Assembly: GCA_045221675.1 (NCBI GenBank)
Contig: JBGUWZ010000012.1
Coordinates: 15,278-79,277, forward strand
DNA from: Lachnospiraceae bacterium
Lineage (GTDB): Bacteria; Bacillota; Clostridia; Lachnospirales; Lachnospiraceae
DNA: 64,000 bases
Reading direction: 5' to 3'
A program made the translations under genes and the position numbers. The first letter of the stretch is position 1. Each line of letters begins with the position of its first letter. Below are positions 55,613-64,000 of this stretch, in pieces. The notes under the pieces are model-generated. The model ran no database searches and was not told the DNA's origin. It saw only the letters and a program-made list of their open reading frames with translations.

Positions 55613-56353
55613 CTACACCAGCGAATTACGGATATATTCTGGGAGACGGCCGACGAACATCTCGATGAACATGGCTAACTGATTGTCCGTTGGCTGGAAA
55701 ACGGCGCATACACTCTCTATCAGAGCCACCATAATGATCTGGAAGGATTCCCCGAATGTGATATCCACCAGTTCGTCGGTGAAAAAAAGAATATCTCGAC
55801 ATGCGTGCGGTCATCCTCACATCTCCGCTGCCCCATCGCAATCATGAAATATCTCGTAAATACGATTGCTATATGGGCAGTCAAGGCTTCAAAGGACCGG
55901 CTGTAGCATTCGCTGACCAACTGAAGATAACTTTTGCAGGTCTTGAAAAAGACCTCTACCTGCCATCTTTTTCCATAAACACGGATAATCTCCTCTTCAG
56001 AGAGAGCCGGATTTGTGCAGATAAAGGCAATCCAGTCCTTCTTGTTCTTCTTGTTTCGCACACATACAATCTTTGCCGGGATCTTCCGGTCTTTGCAGAC
56101 CATAACATTTAAAGAAAGCAGATATTTGCTGCGGCCGTGACACTCCTTGCAGATGCTTAAGATTTTATTTAATGGTGAGCCGTTCTCCATTGTACTCATA
56201 GTATATACGGGAACTCTTCCTGGTCATGGCAATGGAATCCAGCCCGAGGTCTTTGACAGCAATGAGCTGCGCAGGGCTGGAGAACCACGTATCAAACAGG
56301 ACGTAGTCTGCATGGTGACCAGCGGATCGGACAGTCCTCGGGAGCTTGATCAT
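55613..56353 (-). mobile_element. IS4-family DDE transposase remnant (5'-truncated, frameshifted)
   Basis: Three frames give YVLFDTWF, IYGKRW-like VYGKRWQVEVFFKTCKS and GRLPEYIRNSL; no intact ORF and no terminal IRs seen. Confidence 0.85.
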
Positions 56354-56491
56354 GATTTGTATTTTGCCGCTTTATCCATCCCGTCACTATAGTGTATAAA
56401 AAATTTGATATCATCTGCGAGAAGTACTGTATGATCCAAGGCTATCTTTTTCATTAGTAGATATTACCGCTTAAATGTAAATGAATCTATA

Positions 56492-56520
56492 TTGACATTT
56501 ATCTTATGACAACCTATAAT
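56492..56520 (+). promoter_or_regulatory. Consensus sigma-A promoter of the cas operon
   Basis: TTGACA (56492)-17 bp-TATAAT (56515). Confidence 0.85.
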
Positions 56521-56561
56521 AAGCCGTATGAGGGTTAACACTATTCTTGATATCTTGATAA

Positions 56562-56650
56562 GCAAAAGCATCTTCCATAAAAGATGCTTTCGCCTACCGC
56601 ATAAATATAAATTTTTCAATCCCCAACTTTTTAAAACTACAAAAGTTGAC
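56562..56650 (-). ncRNA. CRISPR-like regulatory RNA (CreR/CreA-like): solitary I-C-type repeat, spacer, terminator hairpin
   Basis: GT-CAACTTTT-N9-AAAAGTTG-GGGATTGAAAA, then spacer ATTTATATTTATGCGGTAGGCG matching 56465-56482 next to a TTC PAM, then hairpin AAAGCATCTT/AAGATGCTTT. Confidence 0.8.
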
Positions 56651-56656
56651 TATTAC

Positions 56657-56685
56657 ATTTTACCCATCTCACAAAAAAGTGGCAA
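56657..56685 (-). promoter_or_regulatory. Promoter of the CRISPR-like RNA
   Basis: TTGCCA-17 bp-TAAAAT on the minus strand; predicted +1 falls on the first G of the repeat. Confidence 0.7.
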
Positions 56686-56705: not shown

Positions 56706-59147
56706 ATGACTCTCTTTCTGGCACACACTAAACTGGATGATAGTGGTAATAGAATTGACCAGACATGTCAGGATCACTGCGACCACACTGCAATTTATGC
56801 CCAAAACAGTCTCCTTTCTGTGGGTCTAGGAAGCACGGCATTTTTAGCTGGTGTAATGCATGATTTCGGGAAATTCACGCTGGCGTTTCAGAAATATTTA
56901 GATGATGCGACTAATGGTCTGAAAGCGAGGCGCGGGAGCGTCAATCATACTTTTGCCGGCGTTAGATACATTTTGAAAAAATTTCACTCTAATCTCGACA
57001 ACCCCATTGAGATTCTGACAAGTGAGATTATTGCCTACGCCATCGGAGCTCATCATGGTCTCTTTGATTGTGTTAGTGAAGACCATAAAAACGGTTTCGA
57101 CCATAGACAAAACAAAGAAGGAATATCCTACCATGAAGCAATGGATAATTTCTTCAGCATTTATTGCTCTACATCCGATATTGAAAAACTATTTTATAAG
57201 TCGGCCAATGAAATAGATACTATACTGTCTGTGCTTGATGAGCTGTTCGATAACTACCAGTCACAAGATGACAATGATCGCAATCAGGAGTATTTTTTTT
57301 ATTTAGGATTACTTGCAAGACTTGTATTATCGGCAGTTGTTGAAGGAGATCGAAGAGATACTTCTGAATTCTATGCAGGAAAACCACAGTTCGAAATCCT
57401 TGCAACCAGAGATTTATGGAATGATACCTTAACTCAAGTGGAAAAACAACTCGCCTTGCTTCCGTGTCAGACAGAAATAGAAAAAGCAAGAAGTCTTCTT
57501 TCAGGAATGTGTCGAGATTCCTCACTAAAAGAATCAGGTATCTATCGACTCAACCTGCCTACCGGTGCGGGCAAAACACTGAGTTCCTTACGATTTGCGC
57601 TTGCTCATGCCAAAGAACATGAAAAAAAACGGATTATCTTTGTTACCCCTTTGCTCAGCATCCTCGACCAGAATGCAGCTGAAATCAGAAAATTTGTCAA
57701 CAATGATGCCATAATCCTCGAACATCACTCCAACATCATACACCCTACCGAAAGCACGGAGGAGTATGACAAATGGGAATACTATACTGAAACCTGGCAC
57801 TCTCCTATCATTATCACTACCATGGTTCAATTCCTGAACACTTTGTTTTCAGGTAAAATGTCCTCTGTTCGCAGACTGCATGCGTTATGCGAAAGCATCA
57901 TCGTCATTGACGAAGTACAGACTGTGCCAGTAAAGATGCTGTCACTATTTAACTCTGCTATGAATTTTCTTCAGACAGTATGCAAAGCAACCATTGTGTT
58001 ATCTTCAGCCACACAACCAACTTTTGAAGGCAATCGTTTCCCGCTGAAAAACATCTCTGGGGATATTGTATGTTGCGGCAAGGAAATCCGGGAGCTATTC
58101 CGTCGCACAACGATTAGTTCATTAGACAGTTGCTCATTAGAAGATACCCCCGCATTAGTTCAAACTTTACTCAACGGCTGCAATAGTCTACTGATTGTCT
58201 GCAACAAGAAAAATGAGGCCTCATATCTCTTTGATCATATTTGCATCGACGGATGCGAAAAATTCCATTTATCTGCTTCGATGTGTATTCAACACCGTCG
58301 GGATATTCTGAACGAGATGAAAACAGCACTGGAAGAAATTAAAAACAGCAACGCAGCAAACTCTCTGGCCTCCCGCAAAGTAATATGCATCTCAACGCAG
58401 GTAATTGAAGCAGGCGTACACATATCTTTCGAAAGAGCCATCAGGTTTTGTGCAGGCATGGACAGCGTTGTTCAGACTGCTGGAAGATGTAACAGAAATG
58501 GTGAAAGCAAGAATGCCGGAGACGTCTATATCCTCTCATGTCTTGACGAAAACCTTAATCGTCTCAAAGAAATCAAAGCGTCAAAAATGGCAACCGAAAG
58601 TCTCCTGACAGAATTTAAAAAGAATAGCTCCAAATTCCAAGAAAACCTGGACAGCGAAGAATCTATCAAGCATTACTACAAGCAATATTTCAATAGCTTC
58701 GGCATAGGCTATCAAGAATATCGTCTACCCAATAAAGAGACTCTTTACAATCTTCTATCCTCTAACGAGCAATATTCAGGTCATCGAGAAGAAAATCAAT
58801 TATATTATTTAAAGCAAGCATTCTCTTCGGCAGGATTAGAATTTAAAGTATTCGATACAGAAAACACTGATGTCATCGTTCCCTATAAAGAAGGAATTCA
58901 AATCATCAACGATTTGAATTCCGAAAAGGCTAGATGGAATGATCATATTGTCTCGGACGCCTTAGAAAAAGCAAAACAATACACCGTTTCTTTGTATTCC
59001 TATCAGCTTAATAAACTGGAAAAATTAGGAGCCCTGTATAAAATACTGGACGATAAAGCAACTGTACTTCAACCACAATTCTATGACGACTATATCGGCG
59101 TCATAGATGAAGATAAAAACTATGGATATTTGGAGGTTAGCATATGA
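56706..59147 (+). CDS. cas3: CRISPR-associated HD nuclease/helicase Cas3 (type I-C)
   Basis: HDFGK, HHG, LPTGAGKT, DEVQ, SATQP, QTAGRCNR; GGAGG RBS before ATG 56706. Confidence 0.96.
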   Translation: MTLFLAHTKLDDSGNRIDQTCQDHCDHTAIYAQNSLLSVGLGSTAFLAGVMHDFGKFTLAFQKYLDDATNGLKARRGSVNHTFAGVRYILKKFHSNLDNPIEILTSEIIAYAIGAHHGLFDCVSEDHKNGFDHRQNKEGISYHEAMDNFFSIYCSTSDIEKLFYKSANEIDTILSVLDELFDNYQSQDDNDRNQEYFFYLGLLARLVLSAVVEGDRRDTSEFYAGKPQFEILATRDLWNDTLTQVEKQLALLPCQTEIEKARSLLSGMCRDSSLKESGIYRLNLPTGAGKTLSSLRFALAHAKEHEKKRIIFVTPLLSILDQNAAEIRKFVNNDAIILEHHSNIIHPTESTEEYDKWEYYTETWHSPIIITTMVQFLNTLFSGKMSSVRRLHALCESIIVIDEVQTVPVKMLSLFNSAMNFLQTVCKATIVLSSATQPTFEGNRFPLKNISGDIVCCGKEIRELFRRTTISSLDSCSLEDTPALVQTLLNGCNSLLIVCNKKNEASYLFDHICIDGCEKFHLSASMCIQHRRDILNEMKTALEEIKNSNAANSLASRKVICISTQVIEAGVHISFERAIRFCAGMDSVVQTAGRCNRNGESKNAGDVYILSCLDENLNRLKEIKASKMATESLLTEFKKNSSKFQENLDSEESIKHYYKQYFNSFGIGYQEYRLPNKETLYNLLSSNEQYSGHREENQLYYLKQAFSSAGLEFKVFDTENTDVIVPYKEGIQIINDLNSEKARWNDHIVSDALEKAKQYTVSLYSYQLNKLEKLGALYKILDDKATVLQPQFYDDYIGVIDEDKNYGYLEVSI

Positions 59148-59872
59148 AGATGAGATATCCGAATATTGTGGAGTTTCAAGTAAGCGGAGACTATGCACTT
59201 TTTTCAGATCCTTTAACGAGAGTCGGTGGCGAGAAATTCAGCTATCAGGTTCCTACGTATGAATCACTAAAAGGAATTATGGCTTCGGTCTACTGGAAGC
59301 CAACTTTAATATGGGTCATCGACAAAGTTCGCGTTATGAAGCCAATACAGACCGAAGTAAAAGGCATAAGACCTATTAAATACTCCGGTGGAAACGACCT
59401 CTCTTATTATACCTACTTGAAAGACTGTGCATATCAAGTCAGAGCACACTTTATATGGAATGAAAACCGGCCAGAACTCAAACATGATCGCATAGAGAAC
59501 AAACATTATGAAATAGCGAAGCGATCTATCATAAAAGGCGGTAGAAGAGACATTTTCCTGGGAACTCGTGAGTGTCAGGGCTATGTGGCACCATGTGTTT
59601 TCGGAACCGGAACAGGAGCCTACGATGGTATTAAGGAGCTTGGGTTTGGTCTGATGTATCATGGCATAACATATGCAGACGAAGCCTACTCATCTGAAAC
59701 CGAAAACCATATGACCGCAAACTTCTGGTATCCAGTCATGAAAAACGGTATTATTGATTTCCTGCCCCCCGAAAAATGTCCTGTTCATAAGGTCCTTCGG
59801 GAAATGCCCATGAAATCATTTGATAATCACATCAACTTTACAGGACTAAACGAATTCGAGGAGGTGACTTGA
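59144..59872 (+). CDS. cas5c: Type I-C Cas5 (Cas5c/Cas5d)
   Basis: YALFSDP, SYQVPTYE, YWKPT, GGRRDIFLGTREC. Confidence 0.95.
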   Translation: MKMRYPNIVEFQVSGDYALFSDPLTRVGGEKFSYQVPTYESLKGIMASVYWKPTLIWVIDKVRVMKPIQTEVKGIRPIKYSGGNDLSYYTYLKDCAYQVRAHFIWNENRPELKHDRIENKHYEIAKRSIIKGGRRDIFLGTRECQGYVAPCVFGTGTGAYDGIKELGFGLMYHGITYADEAYSSETENHMTANFWYPVMKNGIIDFLPPEKCPVHKVLREMPMKSFDNHINFTGLNEFEEVT

Positions 59873-59873
59873 T

Positions 59874-61700
59874 TTGGGATTGCTTCAACAAGCATATAAA
59901 ACATATGAATCACATTATGCAGATGTAGGAAAAGTGTTTGAAAATCAAGAGCCTTTGGCTCCAGTTTCTCATCTGACAACAAAAGCTAAGATCGAAATAA
60001 CTATCAATGAAAAAGGCGAATTCATATCAGCTGCTTCTCTGGATAAAAACAGAGAAAAAATCATAATTCCTGTGACCGAGAAGTCCTCTGGCAGGACAAG
60101 TGGAAAGGATCCCTGTCCACACCCTTTAGCAGAACAACTTGGGTATCTTGTTCCCTACAATACACGAAAGCGGGAAGCGTATTTGCAACAGCTTCAAGAC
60201 TGGATTGATTCGGATTATGCAAACATTAAGCTTGCTCCCATCTATCGTTATGTTAATGGCGGGACAATTCTTACTGATTTGGTAAAAAGCAAAATCATAA
60301 AGCTGGAGGAGAACGGTCATACCAAAAATGAAAAGGATCTTATAAGATGGATTGTTCTTGGTGTCGGAGAAAACAGCGGTCCCTGTTGGACTGATAAAAC
60401 GCTATTTGATGACTACACCCAGTATTACAGACACTATAAAATACGAGAAGCGCCTGTATTATGTATGATATCAGGAGAAGAGACTGCCCCTGTACATAAT
60501 TATCCGAAGGGAATAATCGCAAATAACGGCAATGCTAAACTAATCTCCGCCAATGACGACAGCGGATTCACTTATAGAGGCAGATTCGACCAAGATTGGC
60601 AAGCCGCAACTGTGGGATATGAAGTGTCGCAACAAGCACACAATGCACTGCACTGGATTGCTGCAAATCAAGGAGTTGTCCTTGGCAATAAGTCTTCCAG
60701 AGCCTTTCTATGTTGGAATCCGGAGGGGCTCAAAGTTCCGTCCCCATTAAAGCCTCTGCGTCGTCTCCAGAAAACAGAAATAAATGTAGTAAATATCAGT
60801 TATCAAAAAGATTTGTATAAAACACTGATTGGCTGGAAAGAACAATTAAGCGACAATGCCAACAGCACAACCGTCATAGCTTCTTTCGATGCAGCCACAA
60901 CAGGCAGATTGTCCGTCACCTATTATAACGAACTACTAACATCTGATTTTTTGGACAGACTCTATAACTGGGACTTGCATTGCCAATGGTTCTTCACATA
61001 CCAAAACATACAAGAATCCCCCTCGCTAAAGCAGATTGTTGAATGTGCCTATGGAGTCGAGCGCTCAGAAAATGGCAAAGTCATTTTATATGTCAAGGAC
61101 AAATTATTAGAACAACAGGTACAGCGCTTAATGGCATGCCGCATAGAATGTGCCAAATTTCCACGAGATCTTGAGCATCAACTGGTGCAACGTGCTTCCT
61201 CGCCACATATCTATAGTGATAAAAAGACATATAGAAAAGTGTTATCAACAGCTTGCGCTGTTATAAAAAAAGTGTATTTCGATTATGGAAAGGAGGAAAT
61301 TGAAATGGCTTTGAACCCGCAAAAGCAGGATAGGAGCTATCAATTCGGCAGGCTTCTTGCAGTGATGGAGAAAATCGAAACGGATACGTTTGATTCAACC
61401 GACGACAAAAGGACATCCAATGCTATGCGTCTCCAGTCTGTGTTCTGTAAAGAACCGATGAAATATGCAAACTTGTTGAATATGCAGATGGATAAAGCTT
61501 ATATGCCAAAGCTAAAGCCTGCTCAGAGAGTGTATTATAAACGTCTACTCGGACAGATTATCGACATCATCAACAATGAACCGGAGAAGGAATGGAATAA
61601 GCCTTTAAAAGATACTTACTTAATAGGATATTATCTGCAGAGAAACGAATTGTATTCGAAAAAAGACAAGGAGGAAAAAAATGAGTCTTCTGAAGAATAA
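59874..61700 (+). CDS. cas8c: Type I-C large subunit Cas8c/Csd1
   Basis: SSGRTSG, PHPLAEQLGY, AKLISAND, TTGRLSVTYY, DRSYQFGRLLA; TTG start. Confidence 0.94.
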   Translation: MGLLQQAYKTYESHYADVGKVFENQEPLAPVSHLTTKAKIEITINEKGEFISAASLDKNREKIIIPVTEKSSGRTSGKDPCPHPLAEQLGYLVPYNTRKREAYLQQLQDWIDSDYANIKLAPIYRYVNGGTILTDLVKSKIIKLEENGHTKNEKDLIRWIVLGVGENSGPCWTDKTLFDDYTQYYRHYKIREAPVLCMISGEETAPVHNYPKGIIANNGNAKLISANDDSGFTYRGRFDQDWQAATVGYEVSQQAHNALHWIAANQGVVLGNKSSRAFLCWNPEGLKVPSPLKPLRRLQKTEINVVNISYQKDLYKTLIGWKEQLSDNANSTTVIASFDAATTGRLSVTYYNELLTSDFLDRLYNWDLHCQWFFTYQNIQESPSLKQIVECAYGVERSENGKVILYVKDKLLEQQVQRLMACRIECAKFPRDLEHQLVQRASSPHIYSDKKTYRKVLSTACAVIKKVYFDYGKEEIEMALNPQKQDRSYQFGRLLAVMEKIETDTFDSTDDKRTSNAMRLQSVFCKEPMKYANLLNMQMDKAYMPKLKPAQRVYYKRLLGQIIDIINNEPEKEWNKPLKDTYLIGYYLQRNELYSKKDKEEKNESSEE

Positions 61701-62526
61701 AATAGATTTTGTAATGTTTATCTCCGTAACCAGAGCAAATTCAAATGGTGATCCGTTAAATGGAAACCGCCCCAGAACAGATTATGATGGATATGGTGAA
61801 ATATCGGATGTATGTATAAAGCGCAAAATCCGAAACAGAATGCAGGATCTGGGATACAGCATTTTTGTGCAATCAGATGACAGACAAACCGATGGTTTTA
61901 ATAGTCTGAGTGAACGTGCCACAGCAACGCTTGGAAAAATCAAAGATCGTGAAACATATGCAACTACAGCCTGCAAAACATGGATGGATGTGAAATCCTT
62001 TGGTCAGGTATTTGCATTCAAATCCTCTGAGAAAAACGGAGTTTCTGTTGGTGTTAGAGGACCAGTTTCTATCCATCAGGCCGTTAGTGTTTCACCTATA
62101 GAAATTGAGTCATTGCAGATTACAAAAAGTGTAAACAGTGAACCAAACGAAAAAAAATCATCCGATACTATGGGCATGAAGCATTATGTGCGCTTTGGCA
62201 TTTATAAAATAAAGGGAAGTATCAACGTTCAGTTAGCTACGAAAACAGGCTTTTCAGAAGAAGACGCAGATGTCATTAAAGAATGCCTCCGAACACTGTT
62301 TGTTAATGATGCTTCATCCTCAAGACCAGAAGGTTCCATGGAAGTCCTCAAACTTTATTGGTTTAAACATAATTGCAAAGATGGTCAGTATTCCTCCGCC
62401 AACGTACATCGCTCTGTAGAAGTTCGTTGCTTAAACGAGGACACTATTCCTACGAGCATTAATGATTACGAATACGTTGTAAACGAACTTCCCGGACTCG
62501 AGCCGGAGATAATCAATGGAATATAA
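61681..62526 (+). CDS. cas7c: Type I-C backbone Cas7c/Csd2
   Basis: NSNGDPLNGNRPR, SDVCIKRKIRN, RGPVSI, TMGMKH. Confidence 0.96.
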   Translation: MSLLKNKIDFVMFISVTRANSNGDPLNGNRPRTDYDGYGEISDVCIKRKIRNRMQDLGYSIFVQSDDRQTDGFNSLSERATATLGKIKDRETYATTACKTWMDVKSFGQVFAFKSSEKNGVSVGVRGPVSIHQAVSVSPIEIESLQITKSVNSEPNEKKSSDTMGMKHYVRFGIYKIKGSINVQLATKTGFSEEDADVIKECLRTLFVNDASSSRPEGSMEVLKLYWFKHNCKDGQYSSANVHRSVEVRCLNEDTIPTSINDYEYVVNELPGLEPEIINGI

Positions 62527-63169
62527 AGAAGAGGATTATTTGCAACTATCCGGAATACAGCATTTCCTATTCTGCCGCAGGCAATGGGCCTTAATCCATA
62601 TTGAACAGCAGTGGGCAGATAACTACCAGACGGCTGATGGAATTATTATGCACAAGAACACACATGACAGCGGTTTCAGATCTTCACGTGGTGATATCAT
62701 CACGGTTCGTGCTTTGCGTGTCCATTCTGCGACACTTGGACTTTCCGGTGAGTGCGACGCGGTTGAGTTTCATGTGGACGAAACTGGTATTTCATTAGCA
62801 AAAACCAACGGTTTATGGAAACCATACCCGGTTGAGTATAAACGCGGTAAGCCTAAAAATGACATTTTTGATAAAGCACAACTATGTGCTCAGGCCATGT
62901 GCCTAGAAGAAATGCTTTGTTGTACGATACCCGAGGGAGCTCTTTACTATGGAGAGCCCCGAAGGCGTGAACGAGTTTTATTCACCCAAGACTTACGCAT
63001 AACAGTATCTCAGGCAGTTGAAGAAATGCATCAATTGTATTCCAGGGGCTATACGCCAAAAACAAAACCCAAGAAAGAATGCAATTCCTGTTCACTGAAA
63101 GACATTTGTCTCCCTGTACTTGTAAGTATGCAGTCGGTAGATGAGTATATGAAGGACTCGTTAAAATAG
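62516..63169 (+). CDS. cas4: Cas4
   Basis: FCRRQWAL, CDAVE, EYKRG, QLCAQAMCLEE, C-terminal cysteines. Confidence 0.96.
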   Translation: MEYKEEDYLQLSGIQHFLFCRRQWALIHIEQQWADNYQTADGIIMHKNTHDSGFRSSRGDIITVRALRVHSATLGLSGECDAVEFHVDETGISLAKTNGLWKPYPVEYKRGKPKNDIFDKAQLCAQAMCLEEMLCCTIPEGALYYGEPRRRERVLFTQDLRITVSQAVEEMHQLYSRGYTPKTKPKKECNSCSLKDICLPVLVSMQSVDEYMKDSLK

Positions 63170-63180
63170 GGTAAAACGAA

Positions 63181-64000
63181 ATGAAAGTTTTGCTAAACTC
63201 TTTATTTATCACAATAGAAAATGCGTATGCCTCATTAGATGGGGAAAACGTCGTAGTTAAGCAAAAAGATGATACCCTGGCTCGTTTTCCTTTACATATT
63301 CTGGACGCTATCTATATCTTTTCTTATTCCGGAGCATCTCCTGCATTAATGGGAAAATGTGCTGATAAAGGAATTGATTTAGTCTTTTGCTCTCCCAGTG
63401 GAAGATTTCTTGCAAGGACATGTGGTATGAGTCGTGGAAATGTGCTTCTGAGGCGCAAACAATATCGCTTTGCAGATTCCGAGAAAGAAAGTTGTAAAAT
63501 CGCCAGAAATTTTATATTTGGTAAAATAAGAAACTCAAGACAGGTAATAGAAAGGGCAAAGAGAGATCATGCTTTAAAACTTGATATTGATGCTCTATCC
63601 AAAATATCAGATTATCTGAAAACACAACTGGAGGAAGTGCTTCAAGCAAATGATTTGGAATCTCTTCGTGGCATAGAAGGCAAAAGTGCCTCACAATATT
63701 TTAGTGTTTTCGACGATCTGATCCTTACTTCAAAAGATTCTTTTTATTACCATGGAAGAAATCGCCGTCCGCCCTTAGATAATGTCAATGCTCTGTTATC
63801 TTATGCATATACTATGCTTGGCAGCAGTTGTGCCTCCGCTTTAGAAACCGTCGGTCTGGATTCATATGTTGGTTTTATGCATCGTGACCGACCAGGAAGA
63901 ACGTCTTTAGCTCAGAATCTTATGGAAGAATTAAGGCCTTGTATGGCAGACCGCTTTGTACTGACATTGATCAACAACAAAATTGTTGATCAATCTGATT
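63181..64000 (+). CDS. cas1: Type I-C Cas1 (partial; runs off the window)
   Basis: Own translation from ATG 63181: LRGIEG, RNRRPPLDNVNALLSY, GFMHRDRPGR; open to position 64000. Confidence 0.95.
   Translation, partial: MKVLLNSLFITIENAYASLDGENVVVKQKDDTLARFPLHILDAIYIFSYSGASPALMGKCADKGIDLVFCSPSGRFLARTCGMSRGNVLLRRKQYRFADSEKESCKIARNFIFGKIRNSRQVIERAKRDHALKLDIDALSKISDYLKTQLEEVLQANDLESLRGIEGKSASQYFSVFDDLILTSKDSFYYHGRNRRPPLDNVNALLSYAYTMLGSSCASALETVGLDSYVGFMHRDRPGRTSLAQNLMEELRPCMADRFVLTLINNKIVDQSD

Follow-up and report, generated by a model that had tools for sequence, protein, structure and literature searches.

A solitary CRISPR RNA-like gene in the cas3 leader of a rumen type I-C system as a probable autoregulator of its cas operon

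How is a type I-C CRISPR-Cas operon (short palindromic repeats, clustered and regularly interspaced, with their associated genes) held in check, and can the restraint be encoded in the leader of the operon itself? The question is raised by a 64,000-nucleotide (nt) stretch of genomic DNA, hereafter the window, from a rumen Lachnospiraceae-type Firmicute with a genome of 3.46 Mb. Towards the end of the window, an intact type I-C operon is preceded by a leader and, within this leader but on the opposite strand, lies a small gene built like a single unit of CRISPR RNA (crRNA). The original prediction took it for a hidden guide of the CreR/CreA type, through which the effector complex Cascade would repress its own genes. 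Support for this view comes from the architecture of the repeat, the protospacer-adjacent motif (PAM) beside the target, the relatives in which guide and target covary, and the mismatches at every sixth position. On these sequence grounds, we consider it very probable that the element is an autoregulator of the type I-C cas operon, belonging to the class known as CreR or CRISPR-like RNA (crlRNA).

The small gene, its target, and the promoter next to that target are made up of the following parts.

56685-56680 and 56662-56657, minus strand: promoter of the crRNA-like gene, TTGCCA, 17 bp, TAAAAT (promoter scan, 10/12 consensus positions)
56650-56613, minus strand: solitary pseudo-repeat (psiR), 38 nt, GT-CAACTTTT-GTAGTTTTA-AAAAGTTG-GGGATTGAAAA
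56648-41, 56640-32, 56631-24, and 56623-13, minus strand: parts of psiR, namely stem CAACTTTT, loop, stem AAAAGTTG, and the 11-nt handle GGGATTGAAAA
56612-56591, minus strand: pseudo-spacer (psiS), the 22-nt guide ATTTATATTTATGCGGTAGGCG
56590-56557, minus strand: 3' hairpin AAAGCATCTT/AAGATGCTTT (56590-56565) with its U-rich tail TGCTTATC, in place of a second repeat
56485-56465, minus strand: target site, made up of the PAM TTC (56485-56483) and the protospacer ATTTACATTTAAGCGGTA (56482-56465)
56492-97 and 56515-20, plus strand: cas operon promoter, TTGACA, 17 bp, TATAAT (promoter scan, 12/12 consensus positions)

The minus-strand promoter stands where it had been predicted. Six nucleotides separate its -10 hexamer from the pseudo-repeat, whose first G is found 7 nt past the hexamer, and transcription would start at or near this G. 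The 38-nt repeat of I-C architecture was likewise recovered base for base, with an 8-bp stem closed by a C-G pair and an 11-nt tail; the computed fold gives a 3' single-stranded tail of 10 nt, or 11 nt if counted from the C-G closing pair. After the guide, the 3' hairpin reads AAAGCATCTT-TTATGGA-AGATGCTTT, then TGCTTATC. Its energy is -11.3 kcal/mol for the core and -19.6 kcal/mol when extended, and it is likely to be the terminator and the determinant of the 3' end. As a whole, the 101-nt RNA folds into exactly two hairpins flanking the guide (-33.5 kcal/mol, z = -6.3).

The pseudo-repeat can be compared with the array of the same system, since cas2 and an array of 15 repeats are found shortly past the end of the window (array at about 64680-65640 in window numbering, genome contig C12). 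The array repeat is GTCGCACCCCACACGGGGTGCGTGGATTGAAAT, written here as GTCGCACCCCACACGGGGTGCG-TGGATTGAAAT. The handle GGGATTGAAAA is identical to the array's TGGATTGAAAT at 9 of 11 positions, and both repeats have a 5' GT (GU in the RNA), an 8-bp C-G-closed stem, a loop, and an 11-nt single-stranded tail. In contrast, the A-U stem of psiR (-6.9 kcal/mol) replaces the G-C stem of the array (-16.6 kcal/mol) through paired changes, which bears out the description of an AT-rich stem unlike that of typical I-C repeats. Outside the array, a whole-genome search for units combining GT, hairpin, and 11-nt handle returned psiR only, and a search of Rfam found no family, CRISPR-DR included, matching the element. 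A canonical CRISPR array is ruled out by the single unit, by a stem unlike that of the array repeat, and by the lack of an Rfam CRISPR-DR match. Nor does it have the two-repeat mini-array form (psiR1-psiS-psiR2), common among CreR genes without being required of them, as a single pseudo-repeat is followed by the 3' hairpin and its U-rich tail.

What does the guide recognize? It matches the protospacer at 16 of 18 positions, with mismatches solely at positions 6 and 12 and without pairing from position 19 onwards, exactly as predicted. The PAM sits 6 bp upstream of the -35 box TTGACA of the cas promoter, and the target is 105 bp away from the element. Pairing thus ends at guide position 18 (12-18 in the relatives), the usual guide being 33-36 nt long. 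Such a match is hard to obtain by chance. With the sixth positions left free, the observed TTC-flanked seed run is 18; a run above 12 came neither from 20,000 shuffles of the pseudo-spacer nor from the 17,716 remaining 22-mers of the window when taken as mock guides. In the whole 3.46-Mb genome, the second-best run flanked by TTC or TTT is 10, and the site at the cas promoter is unique.

The motif TTC, which had been put forward as the I-C PAM, can be examined through the array. Its leader-proximal, newest spacer, TTGATTACCTAGTGTCTATTGATAGATCAAAGGGA, matches protospacers at 35 of 35 positions in three viral contigs of IMG/VR (L170-L172). All three are preceded by TTC on the spacer-like strand, an arrangement shared with guide and target of the small gene. 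Hence, TTC is the working PAM of this system. The same matches show that the system acquired spacers recently and was recently active against a known rumen-type phage.

A regulatory pair should leave traces among relatives. Near-identical loci occur in rumen metagenome-assembled genomes (MAGs; L005, L006). L006 (98% Cas3 identity) has an identical small gene, and at position 6 of its target C is replaced by T, giving 17/18 matches. At greater distance, eight other I-C lineages (31-60% Cas3 identity) have a like layout with pseudo-spacer/target pairs of their own; the match between guide and target is clear in seven of the eight and decayed in the eighth (P0004). Three further sub-lineages at 58-60% Cas3 identity (L175, L179, L173/L002) keep the antisense-in-leader layout, which makes four with the window. 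They retain the promoter with its 6-nt gap, a repeat hairpin with the handle TGGATTTAAAA, the guide followed by a 3' hairpin, the -35 box TTGACA, and TTC; the repeat starts with GTCAAC, or with ATTAAC in the decayed L173/L002. A spacing of 6 nt from the -10 hexamer to the unit, which begins with GTC (ATT in L173), recurs in the window, L175, L179, L173, L031, and L184. PAM and -35 hexamer are both invariant in all lineage-A relatives. Three of the pairs read as follows.

L175: guide ATTAAAATTTAA, target TTC-ATTAATATTTAA
L179: guide GTTAATGTTTAC, target TTC-GTTAATGTTTAA
L184: guide ATATTCTTTTTTAGTATA, target TTC-ATATTTTTTTTAAGTATA, with mismatches only at positions 6 and 12, exactly as in the window

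The covariation between spacer and target that the original prediction proposed to look for in homologous loci is present. Within the window's lineage, positions 1, 4, and 7 have changed on guide and target alike and positions 6 and 12 vary freely, next to the invariant PAM. Past position 12-13, guide and target of L175 and L179 are still alike but offset by one base (a 1-nt indel), and pairing ends there because of this offset.

Non-homologous I-C loci at 31-47% Cas3 identity (L184, L027, L031, L033, L035) also have an antisense promoter, a unit of GT, hairpin, and handle, and a short guide, with a 3' hairpin that is evident in most and weak in L033. Guide/target pairs of their own are found in L031, L027, L033, and L035 too, with TTC or TTT as PAM on the same strand. 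The cas promoter of L184, L027, L031, and L033 is preceded by a unit that points away from it, and the target is over or just downstream of the -10 box. The two geometries, convergent within the leader and divergent upstream of it, would serve one logic. Where arrays are available (L031, L033, L035), array stems rich in G-C pairs face weaker, rebuilt stems in the solitary repeats, with the same handle. More generally, hairpin and 11-nt tail persist in the window, L175, L179, L184, L009, L027, L031, L033, and L035, whose solitary stems have departed from the G-C-rich array repeats through compensating changes. In an order-wide sample, at least 4 of 29 other I-C cas3 loci have such a unit upstream of cas3, a lower bound obtained with 700 nt of upstream sequence covered and with little upstream sequence at some loci.

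Some of these relatives have peculiarities of their own. In L179-L182, about 85-110 nt upstream of cas3 and antisense to it, a tandem duplication of TGTTGTGGATTTAAA within the pseudo-repeat puts two handles in a row. L009, a Clostridiales MAG, has a solitary antisense repeat 111 nt upstream of cas3, with the handle GGGATTGAAAA, a hairpin, and a terminator. A third peculiarity is seen in L035 (genome G279), in the region about 300 nt before cas3: some 440 nt separate cas3 from the solitary repeat, whose TTC-flanked target is remote from the cas3-proximal promoter and about 30 nt upstream of an open reading frame (ORF) of 14-18 codons with an AAGGAG Shine-Dalgarno sequence; this short ORF may be a small cargo or a toxin under CRISPR control.

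Where do guides and targets disagree? Cas7 flips out every sixth guide base, and these bases do not need to pair in a Cascade complex. Over the first 12 guide positions of the nine lineages, mismatches occupy 12 of 18 sixth positions vs. 6 of 90 others (Fisher one-sided p = 8.6e-8; p = 3.8e-6 with the window left out, and p = 2e-8 over 18 positions), with the proviso that common ancestry makes the four lineage-A members less than fully independent, even if they differ in which sixth positions mismatch. Selection for Cascade pairing predicts mismatch at sixth positions near the neutral 75% and strong conservation of the others, and the pattern is probably the footprint of such selection. Neither a protein-binding repeat nor an antisense RNA predicts it, and it therefore points to Cascade-mediated pairing. 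Found across independent loci, it constitutes evolutionary evidence of Cascade binding of a kind that does not call for an experiment. A direct repeat bound by a protein, as the source of the likeness between guide and target, was rejected for two further reasons: the PAM is on one copy only and the handle on the other only, and the differences between the copies keep a 6-nt period.

Several observations weigh against an RNA-guided autoregulator. The guide is A+T-rich and of low complexity, and its match is by itself of moderate significance because 3 of 2000 local shuffles reached 14/16 matches when PAM and strand were ignored. The target is upstream of the -35 box and overlaps neither the -35 nor the -10 element, so that repression rests on the footprint of the Cas8c side. 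Of the hairpin and U tract that had been described in place of a second repeat, the hairpin stands, but the U tract is interrupted (UUUUGCUUAU) and weak, for which reason the simple/strict terminator scan made no call at the 3' hairpin. In the lineage of L173, L002, and L003, the repeat has decayed and the match to the target is poor, being broken at positions 3, 7, and 11 and then shifted by 1 nt; this lineage is read as a loss of function and counted as decay, not as support. For the guide of L009, no PAM-flanked target was found in the locus or the genome, the search doing no better than a reversed-pattern control. As judged from these loci (L173/L002, L009), the device appears not to be kept in every relative.

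Could the gene act without Cascade? A cis-antisense regulator of the cas3 leader would work through transcriptional interference or RNase III, and its likeness to a crRNA would be a relic. The layout invites this explanation. Before cas3, the sole strong plus-strand promoter found in the scan is TTGACA-17-TATAAT at 56492-56520, which makes the cas leader about 180 nt in length and antisense to the whole crRNA-like gene; the gene lies wholly inside this leader and is fully complementary to it. The gene also converges on a consensus promoter about 135 bp off, this layout is kept in four sub-lineages, and the L173 lineage keeps promoter, guide, and hairpin despite its decayed repeat. However, antisense action leaves unexplained the 11-nt handle with its hairpin, the invariant TTC, the covariation, and the sixth-position mismatches, and the units of L184, L027, L031, and L033 diverge from the cas promoter rather than being antisense to the leader. 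As an alternative to Cascade-mediated autoregulation it is unlikely; in the window's lineage, an antisense effect could well provide a further layer of control.

A second explanation accepts the guide but gives it another client. In a CreA-type antitoxin, part of an addiction module like CreTA or CrePA, the guide would mainly repress a divergent toxin, and control of cas would be secondary. The candidates for such a toxin and its promoter are the following.

56453-56352, minus strand: ORF of 34 codons, downstream of the guide target
56512-07 and 56489-84, minus strand: weak promoter before the 34-codon ORF, TTGTCA and TAGATT (9/12 consensus positions)

This 9/12 promoter overlaps the PAM and the protospacer with the 34-codon ORF next to it, and in L035 too a short ORF with an AAGGAG Shine-Dalgarno sequence comes after a target. 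The ORF of the window, however, has no Shine-Dalgarno sequence, and its 3' end enters the stump of an IS4 transposase. A 9-nt gap in L006 deletes its ATG, and the other differences there are 7 non-synonymous vs. 2 synonymous. No comparable ORF follows the homologous targets in L173, L175, and L179. The ORF was rejected as a toxin for this lack of conservation, and a CreA-type module is very unlikely at this locus.

The weakest idea, an inert fossil (a final repeat and spacer left from a former array and now decaying, a self-targeting spacer, or a Racr-like decoy, without present function), can draw on the likeness of guide and target past the paired part in L175 and L179, which suggests an origin of the guide from the promoter sequence itself, and on the decay seen in L173 and L009, but is extremely improbable in view of the gene's own promoter, its 3' hairpin, the conserved spacing from -10 to repeat, a handle, PAM, and seed kept over 31-60% Cas3 divergence with compensatory changes, and a virus that copies a sister element. 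As for Racr in particular, a solitary repeat acting as a decoy, it is ruled out by the chromosomal location within the cas locus and by the unique PAM-flanked target 105 bp off.

The viral copy just mentioned was found in three IMG/VR contigs and is a prophage-borne RNA element.

L212, 5389-5409, plus strand: prophage-borne RNA copy
L213, 766-786, minus strand: prophage-borne RNA copy
L214, 2051-2071, minus strand: prophage-borne RNA copy

It consists of a hairpin and a handle of the CreR type, GTCTTCAGGGATTCTGATCCCTGATG-TGGATTTAAAA, which is not the array handle, followed by the guide GTTAATGTTTAAAGTGGCATGCAC and then by a strong terminator. In L214, a tyrosine integrase and a lysin flank it. 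The viral guide is identical at 22 of 24 positions to the host guide of the L179 lineage, and it matches the cas-promoter target of that lineage across 13 contiguous bases, the seed. From its sequence, the element looks like a Cracr-type anti-CRISPR RNA aimed at the cas promoter of the L179 lineage. Mimicry of a sister lineage by a prophage suggests that the circuit is exploited by phages. For the window's own guide, no mimic was accepted in the viral scans; the candidates were rejected as protein-coding motifs (tail-fibre RFKDLYLSG) or because they had no hairpin. A metagenome scan with the 16-mer AGTTGGGGATTGAAAA returned chance matches only, among the matches listed.

How would an RNA-guided autoregulator work at this locus? 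The operon to be controlled includes the following genes, all part of an intact type I-C operon spanning 56706-64000 in the window.

56706-59147, plus strand: cas3
59144-59872, plus strand: cas5c
59874-61700, plus strand: cas8c
61681-62526, plus strand: cas7
62516-63169, plus strand: cas4
from 63181, plus strand: cas1

A sigma-70 promoter of its own would drive the small minus-strand gene, with the start at or near the initial G of the degenerate repeat. Cas5c would then cut at the 3' base of the repeat hairpin and leave an RNA made up of the 11-nt 5' handle GGGAUUGAAAA, the 22-nt guide, and the 3' hairpin, with a predicted mature length of about 45-47 nt by analogy with the I-C crlRNAs of Neisseria (48-50 nt). 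Cascade (Cas5c, Cas8c, Cas7, Cas11) loaded with this RNA would recognize the TTC 6 bp upstream of the cas -35 box and form an R-loop of about 18 bp with guide bases 6 and 12 flipped out. The end of pairing at position 19 would make this R-loop too short to license Cas3. Bound Cascade would block RNA polymerase, so that cas3-cas5c-cas8c-cas7-cas4-cas1-cas2 would be repressed in proportion to free Cascade. When free Cascade drops, through competition by array crRNAs or through anti-CRISPRs, repression would be lifted and Cas production would rise, as proposed in published CreR work. We infer these steps, from transcription and processing to binding without cleavage and the sensing of crRNA load or anti-CRISPRs, because the same design was validated in Neisseria I-C and, as CreR, in types I-B, I-E, and V-A.

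The layout of the window's lineage may add a further effect. Read-through from the cas promoter, active once Cascade is titrated, could collide with the CreR promoter and make an RNA antisense to CreR, which would lower the repressor further; we regard this as conceivable but rather doubtful. If true, the circuit would switch CRISPR immunity ON in a self-reinforcing (bistable or ultrasensitive) manner and would not be a simple homeostat. To our knowledge, such behavior has not been described for CreR circuits.

Two features of the surroundings may be added. Just 3' of the cas -10 box, the block GTATGAGGG at 56528-56536 on the plus strand (CCCTCATAC on the minus strand) is largely kept across the lineage at 58-60% Cas3 identity (alignment A1, columns 212-220) and could be the transcription start region or another leader signal. 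On the far side of the cas promoter, two frameshifted fragments of an IS4-family transposase (55720-56353, minus strand; profile positions 196-385 of 449) adjoin the upstream region; L006 is without them, its sequence parting from that of the window at about 56357.

If the proposed autoregulation holds, RNA-guided self-repression of CRISPR-Cas reaches the I-C systems of rumen and gut Clostridia, and does so recurrently, the known principle being unchanged. Units of this kind would mark the true cas promoter, predict systems that are held low until challenged, and provide compact natural guides for I-C-based gene repression. Array finders, as the original prediction had anticipated, and pipelines based on repeat similarity are blind to them because only the 11-nt handle survives.

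Has such an arrangement been reported? In kind, it has. Single-repeat I-C crlRNAs of Neisseria were demonstrated by small RNA sequencing and reporters, and they repress the promoters of Nezha, Gabija, and other "CRISIS" cargo (10.1101/2024.12.27.630466). They are 48-50 nt long, begin with an 11-nt handle, and end within the loop of the 3' hairpin. Their PAM is TTC, and they pair over 16 bp beside the -35 box, position 6 being mismatched; reporter repression was about 21-fold and could be swapped by compensatory mutations (10.1101/2024.12.27.630466). The element described here is like them in its single pseudo-repeat, 11-nt handle, short guide, 3' hairpin, TTC, PAM-proximal pairing over 16-18 bp, position-6 mismatch, and target adjacent to the -35 box, with a predicted length slightly below theirs. 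In contrast, the Neisseria unit lies inside the operon, between cargo genes in the cas3-cas5c interval and cas5c, and controls an inserted defence system, whereas the present one has no cargo, is upstream of cas3 and antisense in the leader, targets the promoter of the whole operon, and has an A+T-rich stem.

CreR was validated in types I-B, I-E, and V-A, with I-C appearing only as a manually found example in Fig. S7 (Liu et al., 10.1101/2023.03.10.532045). The likeness lies in a degenerate CRISPR-like gene that belongs to the cas locus, a PAM-flanked partial match at the effector promoter, autorepression without cleavage (which would also apply here), the absence of a linked toxin, and a proposed response to crRNA load and anti-CRISPRs. 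The validated CreR cases are usually two-repeat mini-arrays of other subtypes, unlike the single-repeat I-C element described here; published examples of the single-repeat form exist for I-C and V-A (10.1101/2024.12.27.630466; 10.1101/2024.10.29.618823).

Regulatory mini-arrays of types I-E and I-F1 were described in a study that did not treat I-C in detail and in which 7% of 1206 loci had mini-arrays (Shmakov et al., PMC10120712). The present unit resembles them by its predicted transcription opposite to cas3, its seed next to the better-conserved repeat, its mismatches at positions 6 and 12, and a guide below spacer length. It would escape that pipeline because a 16-bp repeat match was required there and only the handle survives here (PMC10120712). 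Solitary I-C-type repeats with a short guide and a terminator are also known from viral Cracr RNAs, in a study where I-C CreR was found to be targeted by viral arrays (10.1101/2024.10.29.618823), and from Racr RNAs such as RacrIC1 (PMC10651486). Unlike these, the element of the window is chromosomal, lies in its own cas locus, and targets its own promoter, as befits a host regulator rather than a viral mimic or decoy.

The class is thus already described and the differences are modest. They consist of the proposed control of the whole operon, and of nothing else, by a unit upstream of cas3, the antisense site within the leader, the rebuilt A+T-rich stem, and the Clostridial rumen host.

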